A DNA stretch of 32,000 nucleotides, taken from assembly GCF_001465295.1 (NCBI RefSeq), contig NZ_CP011034.1:1950001-1982000 (forward strand), written 5' to 3'. This document shows, piece after piece, positions 20,178-32,000 of the stretch; the stretch's first letter is position 1, and each line of letters starts with the position of its first letter. Under the pieces are notes generated by a model. The model ran no database searches. It had not been told where the DNA came from and worked only from the letters and a program-made list of their open reading frames with translations. Origin of the DNA: Pseudoalteromonas translucida KMM 520. Its GTDB lineage: Bacteria > Pseudomonadota > Gammaproteobacteria > Enterobacterales > Alteromonadaceae. The position numbers and the translations under genes were made by a program.

Positions 20178-21533
20178 ATGACATTTAGTAATTGGGAAGC
20201 TAAACGCTTACTTTCCCTTGCCATCCCCGTTTTTTTAGCTCAGGTTACCCTTGTTTTAATGTCTGTCGTCGATACGATTATGGCAGGCCAAGTAAGCCCA
20301 ACCGATTTAGCTGCTTTATCTATTGCCACTGGTATTTGGAACCCATTATTACTTGCACTGCAAGGTATTTTACTCGCTTTAACCGGTGTTATTGCACAGT
20401 TTGCGGGTGCCAACGATAAAAAAGGCATCAGCCATTATTTTCAACAAGCTTTATATTTAACTGCGCTGTTATGTATTGCCGGGTTTGGTATTGCTCAATT
20501 TGCCGATATTATTATATTAAAGCTCGACACCAGCCCTGCTATAGCAACACTTGCCAGTGATTATATTCGCTTTGTTAAATGGGGAGTGTTTGGTTTTTTA
20601 ATTTTTACCGTTTACAGAAATATGACCGAAGGTATGGGCATGACCAAACCCGCTTTTTATATCAGCCTGTTAGGTTTAGCGGTTAATATTCCGGTTAACT
20701 ATATTTTTATTAATGGCTTATTTGGCCTACCCGCTTATGGCGGCGCAGGCTGTGGTATTGCTACTGCATTAGTATTAACTGTAATGGCAATAGCCCAAGT
20801 TATTTATTGCCAAATGAGTAAAAAAATAGATGCTAAAGGCTTAATGACTCCCTTTGAAAAACCTAATTTAACCACTATCGGCATTATCACTAAATTGGGT
20901 ATTCCTATTTCATTAGCCACTTTTTTTGAAGTAACCTTATTTGCCTGTATTCCATTATTTATTGCGCATTTAGGCGCCGTTGCCGTATCTGGCCATCAAA
21001 TTGCCGCCAGTGTTACCACTTTATTGTTTATGATGCCGCTCAGCCTTTCTATTGCTATAAGCATACGTATAGGCAACTTATACGGTCAAAACCATTTAAA
21101 ACAGCTAAAAGTTGCTGTTTCAACTAGCTATATACTGGCAGCGCTCATTGCCCTGTTTGTTGCCGTAACTACCTTTTTAGGCCGCGATTTAATAAGCCAA
21201 CTGTACAGCGATAGCCCCGAAGTACTGGCACTGGCTTCATCTATCATGATTTTAGCCTGTATATATCAATTACCTGATGCACTACAAGTTGCTGCAAACG
21301 GTATATTACGTGGATTAAAGTACACCGCACCTATTTCATACATTACATTTGTATCGTATTGGTTAGTTGGCTTTGCACTAGGCTATGTATTAGCCAGAAC
21401 CGACTTAATCGTCCCAGCAATGGGCCCACATGGTTTTTGGTTGGGCATTATTGTTGGCTTAACACTCGCTGCTGTATTATTAATGTACACAGTACATAGA
21501 CGTTTTAAATATGAACCGTCTTTGCAAGCTTAA
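20178..21533 (+). CDS. norM: MATE-family multidrug efflux transporter (NorM/MdtK-like)
   Basis: The 451-aa polytopic membrane protein has a typical MATE N-terminus (...LLSLAIPVFLAQV......VDT.MAGQVS..DLAA.S.A...W.P). Its conserved position next to ribE supports the call. Confidence 0.88.
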   Translation: MTFSNWEAKRLLSLAIPVFLAQVTLVLMSVVDTIMAGQVSPTDLAALSIATGIWNPLLLALQGILLALTGVIAQFAGANDKKGISHYFQQALYLTALLCIAGFGIAQFADIIILKLDTSPAIATLASDYIRFVKWGVFGFLIFTVYRNMTEGMGMTKPAFYISLLGLAVNIPVNYIFINGLFGLPAYGGAGCGIATALVLTVMAIAQVIYCQMSKKIDAKGLMTPFEKPNLTTIGIITKLGIPISLATFFEVTLFACIPLFIAHLGAVAVSGHQIAASVTTLLFMMPLSLSIAISIRIGNLYGQNHLKQLKVAVSTSYILAALIALFVAVTTFLGRDLISQLYSDSPEVLALASSIMILACIYQLPDALQVAANGILRGLKYTAPISYITFVSYWLVGFALGYVLARTDLIVPAMGPHGFWLGIIVGLTLAAVLLMYTVHRRFKYEPSLQA

Positions 21534-22563
21534 ACAACTATTAGTAAAGCCACTGCCAGTAACCTGTTTATTGGTAGTGTGCTTTATGGCATTAACGGCC
21601 TGCAGCGATAAGCCTAGCAATGCAAACCATACTTATACCCAGCGACTAGCTAACACGCTTGATTTACAGCCAGTAACACCAAAACCGCTAGTACCACTCA
21701 ATCTATTACCACCAACTGCATTAAATAATAGCAATATCACCTTGGGCATTATTCAACTTGCCAGTTTAAGCCACTGCAAACTTAACGTCCTCATTAGCGA
21801 GCATAATAACCAGCTCGGTAAAACCGCCACAGCAGCAAGTATATTAATCTATCAAATAAAGTTTATACAAAGTGCGCAGCAGTGCTTAACGACACTTAAA
21901 AAAGACTCTGCTATTTATAAAAAGATTTTGGCGGCAACCACACACAAACAAAATAACTTAATGCACTACTTTAATAACATGCTCTATAAAGAGTCCGAGC
22001 TTAATCGCATTTGGCAACTGAGCTCCCGTGAGCTTTCAATAACCCCAGCAGGCTTTAGCGATACAGTAAATGCCGTAACAAAGCTGGCAAATATTAAACA
22101 ACAAATAACAAAGCAGCAGTTTGCACAAATAACCTCCGAGCATTTATTTGACGCACTAGAGCAGCTTAATAAATACCAGTTTAACCAGCAGCTAATTCAA
22201 TCAGCAAGAACGCAAATAGCCCTAAATAACAGTGCCACCCAATTTATAAACACCATAAATATTAGCCAGCTATGCCAAGCAGGTAAAAATAATAACCAAG
22301 CGCAAATTGTAAATAATATCTTTAAAAAATATTACTTAGGACAAGTGCAACCTTACCAAGCACAACTCGCCGGCTACTTAGAAACCCTGCAGCCGCTATA
22401 TCGACAGCTTTGGTATAAAACAGCAATCACCAGTAAACCAATTAATAATTTACTCCAGCCCAATACAAACAGTAACTTATTGAACCAACTAAAATACTCA
22501 GCTAAAAACCATGTACTTTGGTGGCAAGAATTTTATAAAACGTGTGAAATCAGCCCAATATGA
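21511..22563 (+). CDS. Lipoprotein of unknown function (possibly DUF3080-like)
   Basis: The 350-aa product has a signal and lipobox (LLVVCFMALTA/C). It is Q/N/L-rich and helical. The start overlaps the norM 3' end by 23 nt. The family assignment is tentative. Confidence 0.6.
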   Translation: MNRLCKLKQLLVKPLPVTCLLVVCFMALTACSDKPSNANHTYTQRLANTLDLQPVTPKPLVPLNLLPPTALNNSNITLGIIQLASLSHCKLNVLISEHNNQLGKTATAASILIYQIKFIQSAQQCLTTLKKDSAIYKKILAATTHKQNNLMHYFNNMLYKESELNRIWQLSSRELSITPAGFSDTVNAVTKLANIKQQITKQQFAQITSEHLFDALEQLNKYQFNQQLIQSARTQIALNNSATQFINTINISQLCQAGKNNNQAQIVNNIFKKYYLGQVQPYQAQLAGYLETLQPLYRQLWYKTAITSKPINNLLQPNTNSNLLNQLKYSAKNHVLWWQEFYKTCEISPI

Positions 22564-22677: not shown

Positions 22678-22754
22678 ACGACTGTAGCTCAGTTGGTTAG
22701 AGCACTACCTTGACATGGTAGGGGTCGGTGGTTCGAATCCACTCAGTCGTACCA
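22678..22754 (+). tRNA. tRNA-Val (anticodon GAC)
   Basis: I folded the cloverleaf by hand. The acceptor stem is ACGACTG/CAGTCGT, the D-arm is GCTC-AGTTGGTTA-GAGC and the anticodon arm is CTACC-TTGACAT-GGTAG. The T-arm is GGTGG-TTCGAAT-CCACT, with an encoded CCA. It is close to E. coli valV/valW. Confidence 0.93.
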
Positions 22755-22780
22755 ACATTTAAGAATCCTAAAAAAATTGT

Positions 22781-22857
<77 letters not shown>

Positions 22858-23484: not shown

Positions 23485-25668
23485 TTAATTTACCCCAAGC
23501 GCTTTATAAACAGCGTCAACAGGGTCACTGTAAAAACTTACCTGAAACTTAGTAAACGTTTCTGCTGGGACTGAAGGGATATCACTGGCTGATGCCATTG
23601 GCAAAAGTACCTTAGTTGCTCCACCTTCTAGTGCAATTTGCATACTTGATGCAAGGTCTTGCACTGGATTTACCACACCACCTAATGTAATGCTGCCAAG
23701 CACAACCATAGACTCTTGTATTGGCTTATTCATTAGAACTGAACAACTAGCAATTAAAGAAGCTAAACTTGCTGTACGACTATTACCGGAGTTTTGTAAG
23801 TCAACAAAGTGCAAGTGAAATTCGTGTTCAGAAAATCGTGAAGTTGCTGCTATACGATTTAAATTACCTTTAAAATATTCAAAACCCACCCTAACCTGTT
23901 CTTTTGCTGACGTATCAGAGCCAAAACCTGAAGTAGAGTGCTTACCATTACCAGGTGTCATTTGAGTTTCAACTCTGTATAGCCCTAACTTGCCAGCTGC
24001 TCCTTCACTTACAAAATGAAGCACACCAGGGTTAGCTATTCCAGCTGGTATCAAGTTTGAACCACCTTGTTCTGGAACATTGACAAAAAACTCCTCGAGC
24101 GTTTCATTGTCAATATAGCTAAAGTTAACATCAAAAAATTCCATGCCGCCTATTTTTTTCAACTGTTCTTTAATTCGACGGCGAACCTCTAAAGCATAGG
24201 TTAAACATACCCTTACATCTTCTTTAGTATATTCCCCATGAGGTACTAATAACTTTAATAAACCAGACGTAGTTCGACGCACACCTATTACATCTCGTTG
24301 ATTTAAGTTATTTCCTAGCTTAAAGAACTTATTAATAGAGTCTGAAAACGTTGTCTTGCGCATTTCGCGCATGTATTCAGCTAAGTAATCAGTTATTAAA
24401 CCAAAGCGGTCTGTGAAGAACTCAGGGCGCATTTTAGGTATTTCCCAACCAGGAATGTATCCGTGAAAACGGTCAAAAAATGCGGCATCAATCATATCAT
24501 CAGGGAATGGCGCTAAAAGGTGACTCGTTTTTACTAAAGTTTCAACGCTATGGTCAATATTACCAACAAACACCATTGACGCTTTAGCTTCTATCGAATC
24601 ACGGCCACGAGAGAATGAACCTGAGGCCATATAATCTTTCATGATCTGAATACCGTCTTTATCTTTAAAACGGATTCCGGCTACTTCATCAAAGGCCACA
24701 ACGTCCCACATTCCCACTAAACCAATTTGGCGAGAAGACATATTATAAAAAAGGTTAGCAACTGTAGTTTGTCCGCCCGATACCAAGAGCGAGTTAGGAG
24801 AGCACTCTTTATAAACATGCGACTTACCTGTACCACGCGGCCCAAGTTCACAAACGTTATAGTTATTTTCAACAAATGGGATCATGCGAGCAATTAAATG
24901 CCATTTAGTTCGGTGATCTAAATTAGCAGGTTCCATTCCAATGGAGCGCAATAACATATCGATCCACTGATCCATTGTGAACTTACGTCGAGCTTGATAT
25001 ACCTCTTCCATATTCATAGAAGGCATTTGAATTGGCTTTAAGCTAAATACACTAAAAGGTGATACTTTCTGGCCTTCTTCATAGAAATAGCTAACTGTAA
25101 TAATGCACCAAATACCGCCAGTTAAGAGCTTCTCGTTTTCTTTAACAATTTTATTTGGCACAACCGCATCTTTGATACCGATATTAGATAGGCTTGCTTC
25201 GTAAATATCTTTTTTCTGGTTTAGCTTAACCGTCACTTTATCTATAACTTTATGTGTGCCTTTTTCACGAATAAGCGACTTGGCCTTTTCTGCCTCATCT
25301 GGTCGAACATAGTTTTCCGTTAAGATTTTCTTAACGTTTTTCATGCCTTCGTCAATTAAGTCATCTTCAGCAGCAGAGCAATACATACCTAAAAGGTATT
25401 CCAATACGTATACAGGAACGTTAGCACCTTCTTTTAACTGCTTTGTTAGATCTTTACGTACAATACGACCTTTAAATTCATTTATCATTAACTCGTCTAG
25501 ATCAATACTTCTTAGCTCCCCACGCTCAGTAAGCACAGGTGCAGTGTCGTCTATAGGGTCTATCGTCGCGTCATTTTCATGCATATGAACATGTACATTA
25601 ATTTCACGTTCTTGGTTGGCAACTTGGTTTTCTTGATTATCATTTTCTAAATTGTCTTTGGTTTCCAT
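23485..25668 (-). CDS. brxL: BREX system Lon protease-like protein BrxL
   Basis: The 727-aa product has long blocks characteristic of BrxL as I recall it (GRIVRKDLTK.LKEGANVPVYVLEYLLGMYC; YVRPDEAEK.KSL.RE.G..KVID.VTVKLN; NYNVCELGPRGTGKSH.YKECSPNS.LVSGGQTTVANLFYNMS; WDVVAFDEVAG; C-terminal FTKFQ.SFY.DPVDAV.KALGV). The Walker A motif is GPRGTGKS. A strong SD (GGAAGGcataaaATG) lies 12 nt after the pglZ stop. The ~55-aa acidic N-terminal extension is not in my recollection of E. coli BrxL. Confidence 0.93.
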   Translation of the reverse strand: METKDNLENDNQENQVANQEREINVHVHMHENDATIDPIDDTAPVLTERGELRSIDLDELMINEFKGRIVRKDLTKQLKEGANVPVYVLEYLLGMYCSAAEDDLIDEGMKNVKKILTENYVRPDEAEKAKSLIREKGTHKVIDKVTVKLNQKKDIYEASLSNIGIKDAVVPNKIVKENEKLLTGGIWCIITVSYFYEEGQKVSPFSVFSLKPIQMPSMNMEEVYQARRKFTMDQWIDMLLRSIGMEPANLDHRTKWHLIARMIPFVENNYNVCELGPRGTGKSHVYKECSPNSLLVSGGQTTVANLFYNMSSRQIGLVGMWDVVAFDEVAGIRFKDKDGIQIMKDYMASGSFSRGRDSIEAKASMVFVGNIDHSVETLVKTSHLLAPFPDDMIDAAFFDRFHGYIPGWEIPKMRPEFFTDRFGLITDYLAEYMREMRKTTFSDSINKFFKLGNNLNQRDVIGVRRTTSGLLKLLVPHGEYTKEDVRVCLTYALEVRRRIKEQLKKIGGMEFFDVNFSYIDNETLEEFFVNVPEQGGSNLIPAGIANPGVLHFVSEGAAGKLGLYRVETQMTPGNGKHSTSGFGSDTSAKEQVRVGFEYFKGNLNRIAATSRFSEHEFHLHFVDLQNSGNSRTASLASLIASCSVLMNKPIQESMVVLGSITLGGVVNPVQDLASSMQIALEGGATKVLLPMASASDIPSVPAETFTKFQVSFYSDPVDAVYKALGVN

Positions 25669-25680
25669 TTTATGCCTTCC

Positions 25681-28419
25681 CTAAAAAAAGTCGTCTTCAA
25701 AAGCTAAGTCAATAATCACAGAGTGTGTTGTTTTTACTTTGCTCTCTGTATCTTCCATCATTAACTTGTAGCTCACTGTGCGGTCAAAGCCGCTACCTTC
25801 TAATTTTATTTGTACGTTGCGTTTACGATCGTCCATCTTCTCTGAGGTCGATTCAAACAATACCTTTTCACGTGAACTTACCTTTTTACCATCGGAATCT
25901 TCAATCCATATTTCTAATTCACGGGCCTTAAATTTCTCGCCTACCGGATCTGTTTGAAGGAATTTGATCCTATCGATATTAGATACTATTTTCACAGGAT
26001 TATTGAGCGGAACAGCGTTTACTTTCTGCTTTGCGTGTTTCGTTTGAGCCTTTGTATCTAACTCTCTAATTTGAAGAACAGGAACACAAATTTCCTGTGG
26101 CATAATACCACCATGAATAAACTTAGCCCCACCAACAAAATTAAAACGGTTACTTCCCCTTGGGATCATAAACTCAGCATCATCACCACCGTCAACATCT
26201 ACGCCAGCAGTGTTAGCTAATTTGCCAGTCCAGTAATAACTGTCTGTAGGTAAGTTTGAGCCTATTACATAACGCTTTTTCGCTTCGGTTGTGCCTGCTG
26301 GTTTTGATTTAAGCGCAGTCTTATCTGAATCGGTCACGTCCGTCATTTTAAACAAAAAACCATGATCAGCAGTAATAAGTACTCTACTACCGTTTAAGCG
26401 ATTAATGATACGACCAATCAATTGCTTAATTTCATCAACGGCATCGCGAGCGGCTTCGAAGGTTTGATTCTCTGTCGCTTGCTTATCACCTATTGCATCA
26501 ATCTCATCGTGATAAATATAAACTACCTGAGTATCACGTACTTTGTCTCGGCCTTCTTGATTTGTCCAGTTAAGAACCTCATCCGCTTTAAATGCAACAC
26601 CGCCGTACTTTTCAAGGATTTTATGGCGGTTTTCATGCCCATGCACAGACATTCCATCAGCTTTATATTCTGGCTTAGTGCCAAGGTGAGCTGTCAGCTT
26701 CTGATGAGGTAACAAACTACCCATGCCCAGTTGAGTGTAAGAAGGTACAACGCCTAACTGAGACTTAATTTCAGACTTAAAGCGTTTTTCATCATTAATC
26801 TGCTGGTGAATATCATGCGCTACCTCGTATCGAAGAGCATCAGAGATGATCACAAAAACCCGTTTAGTTTGAGTTTTATTTAATAGGCCTTTAACTTCTT
26901 CACGGAAGAAGTCTTGCTGATTGTTTATTCCAGCTAGGCTCCAATTATCCAGTAAGTTTTCATCATCAACTAACTTACCCCAGACAATCGCTAAATCATG
27001 CAAGTACCAATCAACATATAAGTGCTCAATATCTTCAACAAGACCCGTTGCTTTTAAAATATCAGAGCCGTTTTTACTAATTTCAATCGAGTTCTCACTA
27101 AAAATACGATACGCATGGTCAAACTTATAAAGCTCCGTTTCATAAGCTTTATAAAGGCTCCTTGCACTTTCAAAAGCCAAACCATCAATATGCTTTTCTT
27201 TTAAGTCATAAAACTCTTTAGCCGCTCTTAATGCCGTATAAATAGCCGCATAGTTAGCACTATCTTTATGTGACCCTGTTGAGCACCAATGGCTGCGTAA
27301 CTTTTTCGAAACCCATTCATTAATTTCAACAGCGTTATATGCAGGTAAATCCGTTGCTAACGATTTAATTAGCTGCTGATCCGCTTCAACAAAGGTTTCA
27401 ACATGTATCAACTCCGACGGATGTTTAAACTCGGCAAGTTTACTCTTGATTTCTAGCTCTTGGGCAACCTCAAATGCCACAACATTATATGAATCCGATA
27501 ACGTTCGGCTTTCTCGCCAAGACGACACAAAGTTAACCACAGATGCACGTTTAGAAGCCGCATTAAATAGCAACTCTTTTACGCTCTTTGGCAGTGTCGT
27601 TGTTTCTTCGTCGCTTAAGGTCATGGGTAAAGTATGCGCCGAAAGGCTTGAGGCAAAATTAGTGGCCTGAACAGTAACGCCAGACGACTGCAACGCTTGG
27701 TAGCAATCAGTGACTAATAACTTGGTTAATAAATCTTTTAGTAAAACGAGTTGGGCACTAGCACCTTTATTATCAATCCATAAACAATTGGCAACATAGC
27801 CAAACTCTTCAACAGCTAACAGCCAAAACACTTTACCAAGCTCAAATTTATTTAAATCAGATAGCAACTCATCTGCTTTTTCTGGCTGCTCGGCATACAA
27901 CTTAATTAATTGATAAAAAGCCGCAGTAAAAGAAACCGTTTCTACCTTAGCGATAACAGCAATCATCGAAAGCTCTAATGTTTGTTTATCTGCACCCTCT
28001 GGAAGTAAGCGCTTTAGCTTGTTATATCGCTGCTGGTTCCCAAAAAACTTCTTATAGCGGCTTATATCTTGGCGAAACTCCATTCTCATACCTAGCTCAT
28101 TCAATATCATCGAGCTTGAATCAGCATAAAACTGCTCTGCGTATAAGCGAATATCATACAGCCAATCACGTGCTGGCTCGTTTTGCGGTTTATTGCTATA
28201 CAACAAGAACTTTGAGCTTGTTTCTTTTAGTTCAATACGTTGCTTTATTTCAAAATGAGAACACGCATCAAGCTCAATAAGCTCTACATTACTGCTATTA
28301 AGTTCATCATTTATTGCTGGCAGCTGCTCTTTAAATTCAACATCTTCATCTTGCCAAAATACCAATCGGCACTTGTCGAATTTGGCTAAAATGCCTTGTT
28401 TTATTTGTTCTAGGTTCAT
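25681..28419 (-). CDS. pglZ: BREX-1 alkaline-phosphatase-superfamily protein PglZ
   Basis: The 912-aa product has the N-terminal CRLVFWQDEDVEF motif, the PglZ-domain metal-site motifs VFVIISDALRYEVA and VLITADHGFLF, and a position immediately upstream of brxL. Confidence 0.92.
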   Translation of the reverse strand: MNLEQIKQGILAKFDKCRLVFWQDEDVEFKEQLPAINDELNSSNVELIELDACSHFEIKQRIELKETSSKFLLYSNKPQNEPARDWLYDIRLYAEQFYADSSSMILNELGMRMEFRQDISRYKKFFGNQQRYNKLKRLLPEGADKQTLELSMIAVIAKVETVSFTAAFYQLIKLYAEQPEKADELLSDLNKFELGKVFWLLAVEEFGYVANCLWIDNKGASAQLVLLKDLLTKLLVTDCYQALQSSGVTVQATNFASSLSAHTLPMTLSDEETTTLPKSVKELLFNAASKRASVVNFVSSWRESRTLSDSYNVVAFEVAQELEIKSKLAEFKHPSELIHVETFVEADQQLIKSLATDLPAYNAVEINEWVSKKLRSHWCSTGSHKDSANYAAIYTALRAAKEFYDLKEKHIDGLAFESARSLYKAYETELYKFDHAYRIFSENSIEISKNGSDILKATGLVEDIEHLYVDWYLHDLAIVWGKLVDDENLLDNWSLAGINNQQDFFREEVKGLLNKTQTKRVFVIISDALRYEVAHDIHQQINDEKRFKSEIKSQLGVVPSYTQLGMGSLLPHQKLTAHLGTKPEYKADGMSVHGHENRHKILEKYGGVAFKADEVLNWTNQEGRDKVRDTQVVYIYHDEIDAIGDKQATENQTFEAARDAVDEIKQLIGRIINRLNGSRVLITADHGFLFKMTDVTDSDKTALKSKPAGTTEAKKRYVIGSNLPTDSYYWTGKLANTAGVDVDGGDDAEFMIPRGSNRFNFVGGAKFIHGGIMPQEICVPVLQIRELDTKAQTKHAKQKVNAVPLNNPVKIVSNIDRIKFLQTDPVGEKFKARELEIWIEDSDGKKVSSREKVLFESTSEKMDDRKRNVQIKLEGSGFDRTVSYKLMMEDTESKVKTTHSVIIDLAFEDDFF

Positions 28420-29753
28420 TAATTGAATACACCCATATTCTCTTCTATTTCTTCACCACATACTTCACAAAATTGTGCGTACATATCGTTGCCTGCATTG
28501 CATTCGTAGCAGGTGCTGATATTGTCTTCACGTAAGGTTTCTGTACAAAATGGGCACTCTAATTCATATACTGAAACTACCGTATCACAAACATCACAGC
28601 TTGTTGCCAGTGCTTGTTCATCATGATGCTTTCTATCTTCTAGTTCAGGTTTTACCCTTTCAATAACGCCAAAACGCTCTAAGTTCTGCCCATAATCAAG
28701 TAGTAATGTTTCGCCTTTTGATGGGTGCAAACGTAAACCTCGGCCAAGTATTTGTAAAAATAACGACGTACTTGCGGTCGGTCTGGCGTTTACTATGCAA
28801 GCCAATCGCGGTGCATCCCAACCTGTAGTTAAGGTCGCTATATTTATAAGCCCATTAAGCTGGCCTTGCTCAAATTGCTGAAGGTAATCGGTTCGTTGTG
28901 TTTTTGGGGTTTGCGCAGTAATCAGCGGAAAATCAAAACCATACTCAGTCAAACACTGAGAAAATAATACACCTTGATTCACCGAACTTGCGTAAAACAC
29001 GGTAGGTAAGTTAGCCGATGTTTTATTAAGCCAGTCGGCTACTATCGACTCTACAATTGAATCTACAGCCGTAGCCTCGTCCAAATCTTTTTGAATAAAG
29101 TCGTTTTTTCCTTTTCTAACAGCTGAGATATCGGCAACAGCCTTTGGGTCTGTCACTACAGCACGTAATTGGCATAAATAGCCAGAATTTACCAACTCAT
29201 CAATACGCTTCTTATAAATTAGGGTTTTAAATAATTTATCTTTACTTTCGCCATATATTTCACCTGAATACATACGAAAAGGCGTAGCAGTGAACCCTAT
29301 AATTTTTGGCTCATTCCCATGCATAGCAATAGTATCTAATATATATTGATAACGGGCTGATTGTTCTGGTGGAATTAAATGCGCTTCATCAACAATCACT
29401 AAGTCCCAATCAGGGTTCTCTCCTATTTCTTTTATAATAGAATCTCGGCTTGCAGACGTTACCTGCTTAATTTCTTTGCGACGAAGTCCTGAGCAATAAA
29501 TACCAACATCTAAATCAGGCCAAATTGCTCTTAGCTTTTCTTCATTTTGCTGAACAATCTCCTGAGTGTGAGCCAAAATTAACACTCTAAGCTTCGGTAT
29601 ATCAGTAATTAACTGTTTAATCAGCTCAGCAAAAATAATTGTTTTACCACTTGCTGTTGGTAAAATACATAAGCCATTTTTTTCATTTGAATTAACGTAA
29701 AAATTTTTTAACGCTAAAATTGCTTCTTGTTGATAGGGACGCAGTTCCATCAC
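28419..29753 (-). CDS. SF2 DEAH-box helicase, RadD/YejH-like (ResIII/COG1061-type), with two C-terminal zinc ribbons
   Basis: The 444-aa product has a Q motif (LRPYQQEA), motif I (LPTASGKT, nt 29640-29660), motif II (VDEAH, DEAH at nt 29379-29390), motif III (TATP), motif V (LTTGWDAP) and motif VI (QILGRGLR). The C-terminus has CDVC-x10-CPFC and CYEC-x10-CEVC (nt 28458-28598). The likely start is ATG 29750, overlapping the upstream stop (TGATG); GTG 29753 is the track start. Its stop overlaps the pglZ start (TAATG). Confidence 0.85.
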   Translation of the reverse strand: MMELRPYQQEAILALKNFYVNSNEKNGLCILPTASGKTIIFAELIKQLITDIPKLRVLILAHTQEIVQQNEEKLRAIWPDLDVGIYCSGLRRKEIKQVTSASRDSIIKEIGENPDWDLVIVDEAHLIPPEQSARYQYILDTIAMHGNEPKIIGFTATPFRMYSGEIYGESKDKLFKTLIYKKRIDELVNSGYLCQLRAVVTDPKAVADISAVRKGKNDFIQKDLDEATAVDSIVESIVADWLNKTSANLPTVFYASSVNQGVLFSQCLTEYGFDFPLITAQTPKTQRTDYLQQFEQGQLNGLINIATLTTGWDAPRLACIVNARPTASTSLFLQILGRGLRLHPSKGETLLLDYGQNLERFGVIERVKPELEDRKHHDEQALATSCDVCDTVVSVYELECPFCTETLREDNISTCYECNAGNDMYAQFCEVCGEEIEENMGVFN

Positions 29754-30346
29754 ATATCCTTCACTTCAGTAATAACTTGAAAGAAATAATCAAAAAATGG
29801 TTGGTTACTTTGATAATCAGGCTCACTTATCCGCCCATTTCTATGGATCAACTCGTTACGTTGTTTACGGATTGTTTTTTGAGTTTTTCCCGTTCTTTGC
29901 TTAACAAGCTCACCAGTCAGCTTATCGGCCAGTAGTTGTTTTATCTTGTATTCATCTAATTCAGAATTAAACTTTTTCAAGCATTTGAAAACTTGATCAA
30001 CATTGATTTTTTCAAAAGAACTTCTTGAAGCTAAATATTTTGAAAACAAAGGTTCATACACTTTCTTTTCAAAGGTTTCGTCGGTGTAACCAATATCTTC
30101 TAAATTACTCGATAATGACTTAAACGTATCTTCACACCAATTGCATACCTGTGCAGTTCGAATAATATGAATAGCAATTTGCTCAACTGCCATCCATTGT
30201 GTTAGAAATGCCTGAGTATGATGCCCCTGCTTTTGCAATCCATTTACTTCGACTTCAATATTTACGATTAAATCATTGCCACTTTTAAGTTTTTGTAATA
30301 ACCGTCTTTTAACATTAGCGTCGCTAGTCAACCTTGGAGGTGCCAT
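29750..30346 (-). CDS. Hypothetical 198-aa helical-looking protein with an R-N-x3-H motif; candidate HEPN-domain RNase
   Basis: The ORF has a good SD (AAGGTGGTGaattaatATG) located inside the pglX 3' end. Its start lies 1 nt after the pglX stop. R163-N-E-L-I-H168 (nt 29843-29860) is a canonical HEPN Rx4-6H signature placed ~30 aa from the C-terminus, as in minimal HEPN domains. The composition suggests an all-helical fold, but I ran no secondary-structure prediction. I recognise no other family. The CDS is well supported (~0.85), but the HEPN assignment is tentative (~0.45). Confidence 0.6.
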   Translation of the reverse strand: MAPPRLTSDANVKRRLLQKLKSGNDLIVNIEVEVNGLQKQGHHTQAFLTQWMAVEQIAIHIIRTAQVCNWCEDTFKSLSSNLEDIGYTDETFEKKVYEPLFSKYLASRSSFEKINVDQVFKCLKKFNSELDEYKIKQLLADKLTGELVKQRTGKTQKTIRKQRNELIHRNGRISEPDYQSNQPFFDYFFQVITEVKDM

Positions 30347-30347
30347 A

Positions 30348-32000
30348 TTAATTCACCACCTTTCCGTGGATGGCTTTTACATCGCTCAGTAAATTGCCAA
30401 ATTTGCCGTAGTTAACTTTTACCCCGTCGTCGAGGTCGAGAGTAATACGTTTTTCAGCGAAGTGTTTGAGTTGTTCATCAAAAGAGCGAAGTTCGGCTTG
30501 TTTTCCCCCAAGTGACTTTAAGTCTTTTTCGATAGTACGTGCTTCCGTGCCTGTGGCTTGTAGTTGTTGCTCAGATAACAAATTATATTGAGCTTCGTAT
30601 GCACCAATCAGCGGTATAAGATACTCAGTACGCATACGCGACAAAGTGCTTTCGTTATAGCGATGCATATAGACTAAACACTCAAAGGCTTTTTCTTTTC
30701 CTGAGCTAAATAACCAGTATATTGGCTTTCTTGCATACTTAGTGACATGTTCTTTAAAAAATTGAGTTGATAAGTATCTTCTAAGAGTATTTTCTGCTGA
30801 CTCAGCCTTCTTAGGATTAATTGCATTAAGTATCAAGCTATCAGCAATGAAATTAATATTTTGGTTTAAGCTCTCAGCTCCCCAAACACTTTTTACAAAC
30901 TCAACTACCCTGCCTGTTGCATCATCTTCATATACCCAAGAATCCTCTGCTAACGGCACAATTGCATCATCATCCGGCTGAAAGCTTGAGTACATTCCCT
31001 TGTTTAATACCGATTTAAACTGACTAACGTCTTGGTTTGCAAAAACCACCCCGTCACCGGTATAACTAAATCGACCCATTATGCAGCCTACAATATAACT
31101 TATTAAACTAACCACGGTATCCGATCTAAAAGTATTAAGCACCTTCGCTTTATAAGCATCAGGTTCGCTTTCGTCTAAATTCGTACCAACAGTAAAGTAT
31201 GGGTTTTTATAGAAAGACAAATCAGATGCAGATATTACTACTCGCTCATTTGCGTCAATTTGATAGCTTTCATCTACATGCTCATTTAAGCTTTGCTCCA
31301 GCGAGCTAATATAATTAACAAATTGATGTGTATCAGATTCAATCGTTAAAAAGTCATCTGCTATCAATGTCGAACTTGCCTTAAGATGTTCAAGCATAAT
31401 AGGATGGCTGCCAAACGCTATTGATGTTTCTACGCTATGCCAGTCTTCTTTTGAACACTCAACAAGTTGCTCCACAGTATCTGCAATAGCTGCTTTTTCA
31501 TCATCAACAATAGGTAACACGGCTAAATCATTTGGTCTTATTGAGCCTAAAACCCCTTCTGGATACACCGTTTTGACTAAACGGTTAAACATTGAAGAGT
31601 TTAACAAACCCAACTGAAACAACCTTGTTTGCTCATCAGTAATATTTTCACTTGGGGCAAAGCAAGGGCCTGACGCATCATAAATAGCGTCAGATGGTAC
31701 TTCTCGAGCATTAAACGTCGGCGCCAAAGCGGTCCAAGAGTTAACTTTGCTTTCTAATTGTTGATTAAGTTGACCAATTTCAGATTCCTTCGTATTTACA
31801 TAGCCATTAATGTTTCCATACCAACGCCTATACTCTCCACCTGAAATTATGGGCTTCCAACTGCCTTGTTCGCTATCTAAATCATGATTATTTAGCTCCC
31901 ACCACTGCCTAACATATTTATCACGGTCAATGTTTTTACCTGCTGGCAGTGTTGCCACACTAGACTTAAAAGGCTGCCCCAACGAAAATGCATTCTGTAA
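30348..32000 (-). CDS. pglX: BREX-1 adenine-specific DNA methyltransferase PglX, C-terminal ~550 aa (partial; the gene continues beyond the window end)
   Basis: The frame is open to the window edge. The track's M at 31982 is a TTG inside a longer frame (...LQNAFSLGQPFK...). The C-terminal tail ...LDLDDGVKVNYGKFG..L is typical of PglX as I recall it. Its position upstream of pglZ-brxL supports the call. The catalytic NPPY region would lie outside the window. Confidence 0.85.
   Translation of the reverse strand, partial: LQNAFSLGQPFKSSVATLPAGKNIDRDKYVRQWWELNNHDLDSEQGSWKPIISGGEYRRWYGNINGYVNTKESEIGQLNQQLESKVNSWTALAPTFNAREVPSDAIYDASGPCFAPSENITDEQTRLFQLGLLNSSMFNRLVKTVYPEGVLGSIRPNDLAVLPIVDDEKAAIADTVEQLVECSKEDWHSVETSIAFGSHPIMLEHLKASSTLIADDFLTIESDTHQFVNYISSLEQSLNEHVDESYQIDANERVVISASDLSFYKNPYFTVGTNLDESEPDAYKAKVLNTFRSDTVVSLISYIVGCIMGRFSYTGDGVVFANQDVSQFKSVLNKGMYSSFQPDDDAIVPLAEDSWVYEDDATGRVVEFVKSVWGAESLNQNINFIADSLILNAINPKKAESAENTLRRYLSTQFFKEHVTKYARKPIYWLFSSGKEKAFECLVYMHRYNESTLSRMRTEYLIPLIGAYEAQYNLLSEQQLQATGTEARTIEKDLKSLGGKQAELRSFDEQLKHFAEKRITLDLDDGVKVNYGKFGNLLSDVKAIHGKVVN

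Follow-up and report, generated by a model that had tools for sequence, protein, structure and literature searches.

A compact RadD-like helicase with exchangeable HEPN- and TIR-type partners in the pglX–pglZ interval of type 1 BREX operons

A stretch of 32,000 nucleotides from Pseudoalteromonas translucida KMM 520 (contig NZ_CP011034.1, positions 1,950,001 to 1,982,000; hereafter the window) carries the downstream part of a type 1 bacteriophage exclusion (BREX) operon in which two extra genes occupy the interval between pglX and pglZ. PTRA_a2153 codes for a HEPN-like protein of 198 residues and PTRA_a2152 for a superfamily 2 (SF2) helicase of 443 or 444 residues that resembles RadD. Comparative analysis revealed that this compact helicase is confined to type 1 BREX operons and diverges together with PglZ, and that the gene upstream of it is exchanged among HEPN-like, RNxxxH and TIR proteins. 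We tentatively interpret the cassette as a BREX-resident second-line arm that combines a helicase with an effector.

Results

The cassette in its operon

An earlier reading of the window, made from the letters alone (the sequence-only reading), had placed two open reading frames (ORFs) on the minus strand between pglX and pglZ, and both were found there. The residues that it had named, K37 and D122/E123 of the helicase and R163/H168 of the small protein, as well as the CxxC pairs, were all verified in the translation. The BREX genes and the cassette are arranged as follows.

30348..32000, minus strand: 3' part of pglX (BREX-1 methyltransferase), continuing past the window edge; PADLOC PglX 1.4e-123, NCBIfam BREX_1_MTaseX 6e-121
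29750..30346, minus strand: PTRA_a2153, HEPN-like protein of 198 residues, predicted effector; starts 1 base past the pglX stop
29843..29860, minus strand: RNELIH, the Rx4H motif of the HEPN-like protein (R163-H168); checked in the translation
28419..29753, minus strand: PTRA_a2152, compact RadD-like SF2 helicase, 444 residues from GTG; Pfam ResIII and Helicase_C, NCBIfam RadD, PDB 6jde
29640..29660, minus strand: Walker A PTASGKT, motif I of the helicase (K37); translation and clade alignment
29379..29390, minus strand: DEAH box, motif II of the helicase (D122/E123); translation and clade alignment
28458..28598, minus strand: two C-terminal zinc ribbons of the helicase, four CxxC pairs (C386/389, C400/403, C415/418, C429/432); checked in the translation
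25681..28419, minus strand: pglZ, BREX-1 phosphatase type A (PTRA_a2151); TIGR02687, 798.6 bits against a cutoff of 270.35
23485..25668, minus strand: brxL, the last gene of the operon; TIGR02653, 1228 bits against 628.25; Pfam BrxL_N, BrxL_ATPase and Lon_C

PglZ of type A and BrxL both score above their curated cutoffs and identify the context as type 1 BREX. The part of pglX inside the window, truncated by the window edge, reaches 405 bits against the BREX_1_MTaseX cutoff of 500. The genes brxA, brxB and brxC are present together with pglX in the homologous loci L001, L002 and L014; for the window, the upstream operon lies past the edge. The probable start of the helicase is the ATG at 29750, which yields the form of 443 residues annotated by NCBI, and its homologues likewise begin with MELRPYQ.

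On the coding strand the pglX stop TAA is separated by one base from the ATG of the HEPN-like gene, the HEPN-like and helicase genes overlap in TGATG, and helicase and pglZ overlap in TAATG. These stop/start overlaps couple the cassette translationally into the operon. Promoter-like sites were not enriched across the cassette stretch (14 found, 25 expected), nor were terminator-like sites (3 found, 7 expected), which together with the overlaps indicates that the cassette is co-expressed with BREX. The GC content is even across the stretch at about 0.39.

Confinement to BREX and co-divergence with PglZ

Genomic contexts were gathered by contig look-ups, a genome scan and a metagenome scan, and the ORFs were classified with purpose-built profiles. 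The sample consisted of 14 distinct loci from marine or aquatic Gammaproteobacteria (Pseudoalteromonas, Alteromonas, Alishewanella and a Chromatiaceae metagenome-assembled genome) and from metagenomes, namely the window/L025, L001, L002-4, L007, L008, L009, L011, L012/13, L014/15, L016-18/28, L026/27, L029, L030 and L031. Without exception, these 14 loci with a compact-clade helicase (at least 53% identity) were type 1 BREX operons in which the helicase occupies the pglX–pglZ interval; L026/27 is a short contig on which only a downstream copy of pglX is visible.

Pairwise identity averaged 62.4% among the helicases and 62.9% among the PglZ proteins, with Spearman coefficients of 0.67 for helicase against PglZ and 0.71 for PglZ against BrxL. 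This co-divergence with the operon characterizes the helicase as a long-standing resident and not as recent cargo. PglZ proteins at least 90% identical to that of the window are encoded in the complete P. nigrifaciens and P. agarivorans genomes and on a genome-size contig of a third Pseudoalteromonas (all three 3.4-3.6 Mb), and no cluster of the compact-clade helicase or the HEPN-like protein lists a contig of such size besides that of KMM 520. Judging from the cluster metadata, near-identical PglZ proteins thus occur in genomes apparently devoid of the cassette, which would make it dispensable for BREX.

The sequence-only reading had proposed the pair as an undescribed defence module, an abortive-infection backup or BREX accessory, and had named co-occurrence outside BREX as a test. 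In the neighbourhood survey the pair was never seen outside BREX, and the free-standing version of the claim therefore fails by that test.

Exchange of the upstream partner

The helicase is immediately preceded by a gene for a small HEPN-family, RNxxxH or TIR protein in 10 of the 14 loci; in two more an insertion has displaced that gene. The partner belongs to the HEPN-like family of the 198-residue protein in five loci (truncated in L026/27), to a family of 148 residues with the motif RNELVH or RNAIVH in two, and to a family of 152/153 residues with the motif RNVAGH in another two, the helicase of L016 being kept apart from it by three inserted genes. In three loci this role falls to a ThsB-like TIR domain (Pfam TIR_2, 3.1e-12); in L029 its gene is located between the halves of a split pglX. 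The 148-residue partners are shortened homologues of the 198-residue family (hhalign 96%, E 4e-9). Homology of the 152/153-residue partners to that family was rejected (hhalign 0.1%), RNxxxH being all that the two have in common.

Exchange of the partner can be followed between closely related loci. The helicases of two Pseudoalteromonas strains (L001 and L008) are 98% identical and their PglZ and BrxL proteins 100% identical, and the partner is the HEPN-like protein in L001 and a 153-residue protein in L008. Their DNA ceases to be similar precisely in the stretch from the pglX stop to the helicase start, and again between helicase and pglZ. Partner swaps were likewise found in the pairs L002/L014 and L012/L029, with helicases 90% and 91% identical. 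Judged from these alignments, the swaps are recent and precise, and after a swap the slot upstream of the helicase was refilled with another effector-type gene and not left empty. The proposal of a two-gene module consequently survives in part: the helicase is conserved and exclusive to BREX-1, but the HEPN gene is one of several interchangeable partners, and each of the two genes also occurs alone.

The compact helicase and its ancestry

Among Pfam families the helicase matched ResIII (5.5e-23), Helicase_C (5.9e-10) and DEAD above threshold and DZR (6.1e-4) below it. The NCBIfam model for RadD (NF053632) was matched with an E-value of 1.4e-69 over model positions 1-386 of 573, scoring 234.9 bits where 720 is the cutoff, and the best solved structure was that of E. 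coli RadD (6jde, E 5.2e-49, residues 3-359). Across the compact clade (21 helicases, 53-99% identity, 437-452 residues) there is no variation in Walker A PTASGKT, DEAH, FTATP or QxxGRGLR, nor in any of the eight cysteines that make up the four CxxC pairs starting at 386, 400, 415 and 429. The profile and structure matches and the invariant cysteines agree with the initial description of a RadD-like helicase with twin zinc ribbons.

What the helicase shares with E. coli RadD is the SF2 core, motifs I, II, III and VI included, and the zinc ribbon. The window protein, however, ends about 12 residues past the last CxxC, compared with 586 residues in RadD, and is missing some 120-130 C-terminal residues that both RadD and the closest non-BREX relative possess. 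The arginines that form the pocket of RadD for SSB (the protein that binds single-stranded DNA), R21, R49 and R145 (PMC10238739), correspond to V20, K54 and K150 in the helicase, and the first two of these positions vary within the clade. Because the C-terminal region is absent and the pocket arginines are replaced, and with a score far under the cutoff, orthology to RadD was rejected. The idea that the absent C-terminus is the SSB-binding site was rejected as well, since the pocket sits on RecA-like domain 1 (PMC10238739). The context differs too: the window helicase belongs to a defence operon, RadD to repair and the phage RadD-like helicases to phage replication.

The helicase family comprises about 29 clusters at 90% identity. 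Below the compact clade, identity in the metagenome scan drops from 53% to at most 37%, and the prophage helicase P0044 (44% identity, 555 residues) is the sole protein between. P0044 aligns over residues 1-434 of the window helicase, zinc-ribbon region included, and is encoded in a prophage replication module (L024:6825-11668) with Prim-Pol, AAA_24, DUF669 and T5orf172 genes. The flanks of 73 loci with relatives of 33-44% identity (about 555-740 residues) contained neither PglX, PglZ, BrxL nor BrxC. Relatives at about 30-34% identity, annotated as DNA helicases, are encoded in 3,157 phage records, and similar helicases adjoin Cas4-like nucleases in Pseudoalteromonas and Vibrio phages. The compact clade itself had no match in the phage, plasmid or viral-contig collections. 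With the nearest relatives borne by phages and prophages, the BREX helicase appears to have branched off, with a shortened C-terminus, from a RadD-like family carried largely by phages.

The HEPN-like protein

A word-indexed search of 5.8 billion proteins retrieved 11 relatives of the 198-residue protein at 60-99% identity, and with a profile search of 1.84 billion 50%-cluster representatives the family grew to 21 members, about 180-230 residues long and down to about 19% identity. Three more members, all on short contigs, came from a third protein search with the extended alignment. A profile of the distant subgroup found no relatives in the metagenome scan, and the protein had no match in the viral-contig scan nor in the tblastn searches of phages and plasmids.

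The catalytic motif by which HEPN proteins are recognized has the form Rx4-6H, the arginine usually being followed by N, D or H. The family consensus T-I-R-x-x-R-N-x-x-(V/I)-H contains such an Rx4H signature near the C-terminus. Across 23 aligned members, with identities down to 19%, E55, R160, N164 and H168 are invariant and R163 is kept in 22, the exception being P0147 (L019) with leucine in place of arginine. An RN...H pattern arises in 1.1% of shuffles of the 198-residue sequence; its invariance in so divergent a family, with this one exception, indicates that the motif is not due to chance.

Profile matches point in the same direction. The Pfam family HEPN_RiboL-PSP (PF18735) matched the 198-residue protein with an E-value of 0.012 and 15.9 bits, under the gathering score of 28.4, and the PADLOC Csx1/Csm6 HEPN model matched it with 3.7e-4. 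HEPN_RiboL-PSP matched 12 of the 23 members (best E 8.2e-5), all under the Pfam gathering score; DUF4145 was matched by four members and the Csm6 HEPN by three, and no unrelated family appeared in more than two. UniRef names the protein "RiboL-PSP-HEPN domain-containing protein". An AlphaFold (AF2) model built on a deeper alignment was all-helical, with a mean predicted local distance difference test (pLDDT) of 87.8 and a predicted template modelling score of 0.84. Neither this model nor another with a pLDDT of 77.8 had a Foldseek match in the PDB at E <= 0.001, and the HEPN-containing entries 7bxo, 6tug and 2q00 appeared only at E > 1. The family profile found nothing meaningful among PDB sequences either (best E 0.085, a myosin-tail-interacting protein). 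The protein is thus likely a member of the HEPN superfamily, in agreement with the sequence-only reading; because both Foldseek searches ended without a significant match, the assignment is made at the level of motif and profile and fold-level proof is not claimed.

RiboL-PSP-type HEPN is the closest relation that can be named, being the top and commonest profile match of the family and sharing the C-terminal RNxxxH and the predicted all-alpha fold. The window family differs in having its own conserved N-terminal helix (TQAFLTQWMAVEQIA) and in occurring only directly after PglX ORFs.

Other cargo and neighbouring genes

The pglX–pglZ gap had been regarded as a landing pad for further defences, and the variety of its cargo bears this out. 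It includes GmrSD/SspE-like genes (L001, L030), Bunzi (L008), an Abi_C protein (L014), an Hsp70-like three-gene set (L016), pentapeptide and NTP-transferase genes (L007), and PDC-M16A/B with an OLD/AriA-like ATPase (L029). In Pseudoalteromonas sp. T1lg48 a complete Bunzi system (L008:11400-14638; BnzA 6.7e-203, BnzB 5.2e-191) is located between helicase and pglZ; at the same spot the sister strain T1lg76 (L001) carries a GmrSD/SspE-like gene and two unknown genes, and the operon is otherwise 97-99.9% identical. In L029 PDC-M16A/B, the PDC-M25A (OLD/AriA-like) ATPase and an ORF of 247 residues are packed between helicase and pglZ (L029:7860-14491). The StySA paper describes a pair of genes for an ATPase and a DUF4435 protein between pglX and pglZ in Salmonella LT2.

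The three genes of the Hsp70-like set (L016:2909-6886; also in L017, L018 and L028) encode proteins of 370 and 375 residues and an Hsp70/MreB-like ATPase of 586 residues and lie between the 152-residue RNxxxH gene and the helicase. They had no PADLOC match at E <= 1e-5, and the insertion was met again on many contigs from marine metagenomes, of which 24 were read. It may represent uncharacterised defence cargo. The Salmonella pair, for its part, has the PARIS AriA/AriB architecture; the sequence-only reading had placed PARIS at this position of the StySA locus, and a two-gene pair does lie there.

Cargo was also found inside pglX. In five loci a break near residue 640 divides the gene into ORFs of about 660 residues (N-terminal, the methyltransferase half) and about 590 residues (C-terminal), with a gene inserted between them.

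L012:3-5999: insert of about 1020 residues, UG5-nitrilase defence reverse transcriptase (PADLOC 3.2e-299)
L009:2-6305: ORF of similar size with an RVT_1 match
L031:512-7489: ORF of similar size, L009 and L031 sharing 93% DNA identity
L029:1973-6389: TIR gene
L022:2070-5258: distant member of the HEPN-like family (23% identity)

The fetched stretch of L031 holds no other full-length pglX, and its split pglX may thus be functional. BREX-1 accordingly offers two precise insertion slots with turnover of defence cargo, namely the position after pglX and a site near residue 640 within that gene. Extra genes between brxC and pglX were seen as well. In L001 (4784-6316) such a gene encodes a protein of 510 residues with Schlafen/AlbA_2, HATPase_c_4 and Fic-like_C domains, which matches the Schlafen-family backup effectors of Rakesh & Krishnan 2026 (PMC12839542), and in L014 (5242-5814) an unannotated ORF of 190 residues.

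Of two divergent pglX copies in tandem, the window holds part of the second, as judged by the 99%-identical contig L025 (59-7406), which encodes PglX of 1241 residues followed by PglX' of 1115 residues; the second is about 38-40% identical to PglX of L001. Tandem copies also occur in L007 and L011, and L026/27 has a pglX copy downstream of the helicase. They may be a sign of specificity switching or phase variation. On the far side of brxL the BREX island ends at a tRNA pair.

22678..22857, plus strand: two tRNA-Val(GAC) genes just past brxL, at the edge of the BREX island; ARAGORN

The DUF3080 and MatE genes beside this pair (window 20178-22563) also border the BREX island of Alishewanella agri (L012:19660-21335), which suggests a chromosomal insertion site conserved across genera.

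Discussion

The arrangement described here is most readily, if tentatively, understood as a second-line arm within BREX. The helicase would be a DNA motor of compact, RadD-like build that is driven by ATP. It was probably taken over from a helicase of a phage replication module with loss of a C-terminal domain of about 120 residues, became a long-standing add-on of one marine gammaproteobacterial type 1 BREX lineage and is presumably co-translated between pglX and pglZ. It may act as a nucleic-acid sensor or motor, and a sensor role is at least as plausible as processive unwinding. The slot upstream of it would encode an interchangeable toxic output domain, a HEPN-type ribonuclease in KMM 520 and a TIR or other RNxxxH protein elsewhere. 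HEPN and TIR are classical defence output domains. Upon meeting phage DNA, or replication and recombination intermediates, that BREX failed to stop, the helicase would license the effector, possibly through direct interaction of the two proteins. The licensed effector would then cut RNA, or in the TIR versions consume NAD+, and the infected cell would arrest, an outcome of the abortive-infection type.

Several observations weigh against such a helicase-plus-effector arm. The sample is small, with only 14 loci from a narrow range of taxa. The Pfam scores behind the HEPN assignment are below threshold, and the structural models found no significant counterpart in the PDB. Helicase and small partner are also found apart. 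Two of the 14 loci (L009, L030) have the helicase without a small partner, and the HEPN-like gene occurs without the helicase in at least three distinct loci, in the order pglX-HEPN-pglZ in L005/6 (60% identity) and L019 (26%, the member with the R-to-L exchange) and in the order pglX-HEPN-other genes in L020/21 (38%). HEPN and TIR genes furthermore always follow directly after a PglX ORF, in L022 and L029 even between the halves of the split pglX, so that PglX could be their real partner. Finally, the HEPN-like gene decays in places. A truncation of 122 residues without the motif stands beside an intact helicase (L026:87-455; L026/27), and the arginine of the motif is lost in P0147 (L019:2944-3555). 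P0007 is truncated to 165 residues. Decay of this kind is consistent with the loss of a costly or toxic gene.

An alternative that is possible but somewhat doubtful is that independent BREX accessories share a hotspot, the helicase as an auxiliary BREX motor analogous to BrxHI/BrxHII and the HEPN and TIR proteins as stand-alone backups tied to PglX. HEPN-only and helicase-only loci do both occur, the effector genes keep their place after PglX even within a split gene, and the helicase diverges with PglZ in the manner of a core gene; standalone HEPN modules in BREX loci have moreover been described as backup effectors (PMC12839542, PMC3710099). Independence does not, however, account for the adjacency of two very rare families, with 21 HEPN-like representatives and about 29 helicase clusters, whose genes stand side by side with stop/start overlaps in most loci. 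Nor does it account for the refilling of the slot upstream of the helicase with an effector-type gene after a swap. An auxiliary motor is also difficult to reconcile with a BREX system that apparently does not need it, as inferred from PglZ proteins at least 90% identical in genomes that are absent from the helicase clusters.

A more specific form of the second-line arm, which we regard as unlikely, would make the helicase a BREX-dependent signal transducer that reads the state of BREX and activates whichever plug-in toxin fills the upstream slot. The states read could be, for example, a stalling of PglX or PglZ on phage DNA that lacks methylation, or their blockage by an anti-BREX protein of the phage, and the toxin a HEPN RNase, a TIR NADase or another. 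If true, this lineage would have a naturally occurring BREX with abortive infection as a built-in output, and would provide a genetic handle on the action of BREX on phage DNA.

Still less probable is an autonomous abortive-infection system that is merely lodged in the pglX–pglZ landing pad without functional dependence on BREX. The gap does collect autonomous systems (Bunzi, GmrSD-like, PDC-M16, Abi_C), the StySA pair occupies the same position, and the layout of helicase plus effector resembles stand-alone systems such as Hachiman. Against this, the compact helicase was found outside BREX in none of the 14 loci, neither family matched the phage, plasmid or viral-contig collections, and the helicase, unlike the neighbouring cargo, co-diverges with PglZ. 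That the two genes form no defence pair at all, with the HEPN-like protein as a non-catalytic adaptor or regulator (e.g. of PglX) and the helicase as a domesticated prophage remnant with a housekeeping or operon-expression role, is very improbable: the missing fold confirmation, the one member without the motif arginine and the phage replication genes as nearest relatives of the helicase would fit, but the invariance of R160, N164, H168 and E55 down to 19% identity argues for catalysis, a bona fide ThsB-like TIR domain replaces the HEPN-like protein in the same slot, and all catalytic motifs of the helicase are intact.

Type 1 BREX is usually described without a helicase. A type 1 lineage with a dedicated, co-diverging helicase and exchangeable HEPN or TIR outputs represents a natural experiment on how recognition could be wired to killing or arrest, and the strain pair L001/L008 comes close to an isogenic effector swap. 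A phage-derived RadD-like helicase would also be added to the list of defence sensors.

Comparison with known systems

The sequence-only reading had recognized no named system in the pair, and the PADLOC search of both proteins agrees: neither was assigned to a named system in PADLOC-DB 2.0.0, which dates from 2023. The helicase matched generic cores only (type IV restriction endonuclease, PbeA, type I R subunits and the N-terminus of HamB). PARIS, Gabija and Mokosh were rejected as identities, with no AriA, AriB or GajA match in PADLOC for either protein and MkoA aligning only weakly (E 0.0023) with the generic core of the helicase; beyond this MkoA match, no signature protein of PARIS, Gabija, Mokosh, Hna or Nhi was among the PADLOC matches.

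Literature searches on BREX with RadD, on TIR with a helicase and on the pglX–pglZ gap yielded no description of the cassette. HEPN genes within Pgl/BREX operons were noted by Anantharaman et al. 2013 (PMC3710099), and "standalone HEPN" modules in BREX were described as backup effectors by Rakesh & Krishnan 2026 (PMC12839542). The families concerned are pEK499_p136 and RloC, however, and the modules stand alone. RadD and TIR are mentioned in neither paper's main text, nor is a helicase described as the partner of HEPN or TIR effectors, and the present organisms were not found in the accessible portion of the supplementary text of PMC12839542. The claim of an undescribed module therefore narrows. 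HEPN in BREX operons was already known in general terms, from 2013 and again from 2026, and the new part is the helicase-centred, effector-swapping cassette. With the backup effectors embedded in BREX (PARIS in StySA, BrxU/GmrSD and standalone HEPN) the cassette shares the position between pglX and pglZ and the second-line logic; PARIS and GmrSD, however, are widespread outside BREX and the compact helicase is not.

Helicases encoded within the BREX operon are also known from BREX types 2-6 as BrxHI and BrxHII, and BrxHI reportedly lies between pglX and pglZ in type 6 BREX. Those proteins are Ski2/Lhr-like and Swi2/Snf2 helicases, whereas the present one is RadD/XPB-like and stands in an operon that retains BrxL and the hallmarks of type 1. 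An identity with BrxHI or BrxHII was rejected, both being absent among the best 25 of 34 matching PADLOC families (down to E 0.0086).

By architecture the closest analogue is Hachiman, in which a small effector gene likewise lies directly upstream of an SF2 helicase gene. An assignment to Hachiman itself was rejected, as the 198-residue protein has no HamA/DUF1837 match and the HamB models cover only residues 17-128 of the helicase (E 3.7e-6). HamB is Ski2-like with about 850 residues, in contrast to the RadD-like helicase of about 440 residues with its HEPN or TIR effector, and the cassette is never free-standing but occurs only inside BREX-1. The helicase of Hachiman is thought to sense the state of DNA and to license the effector, and this provides the best analogy for how the BREX cassette may work.

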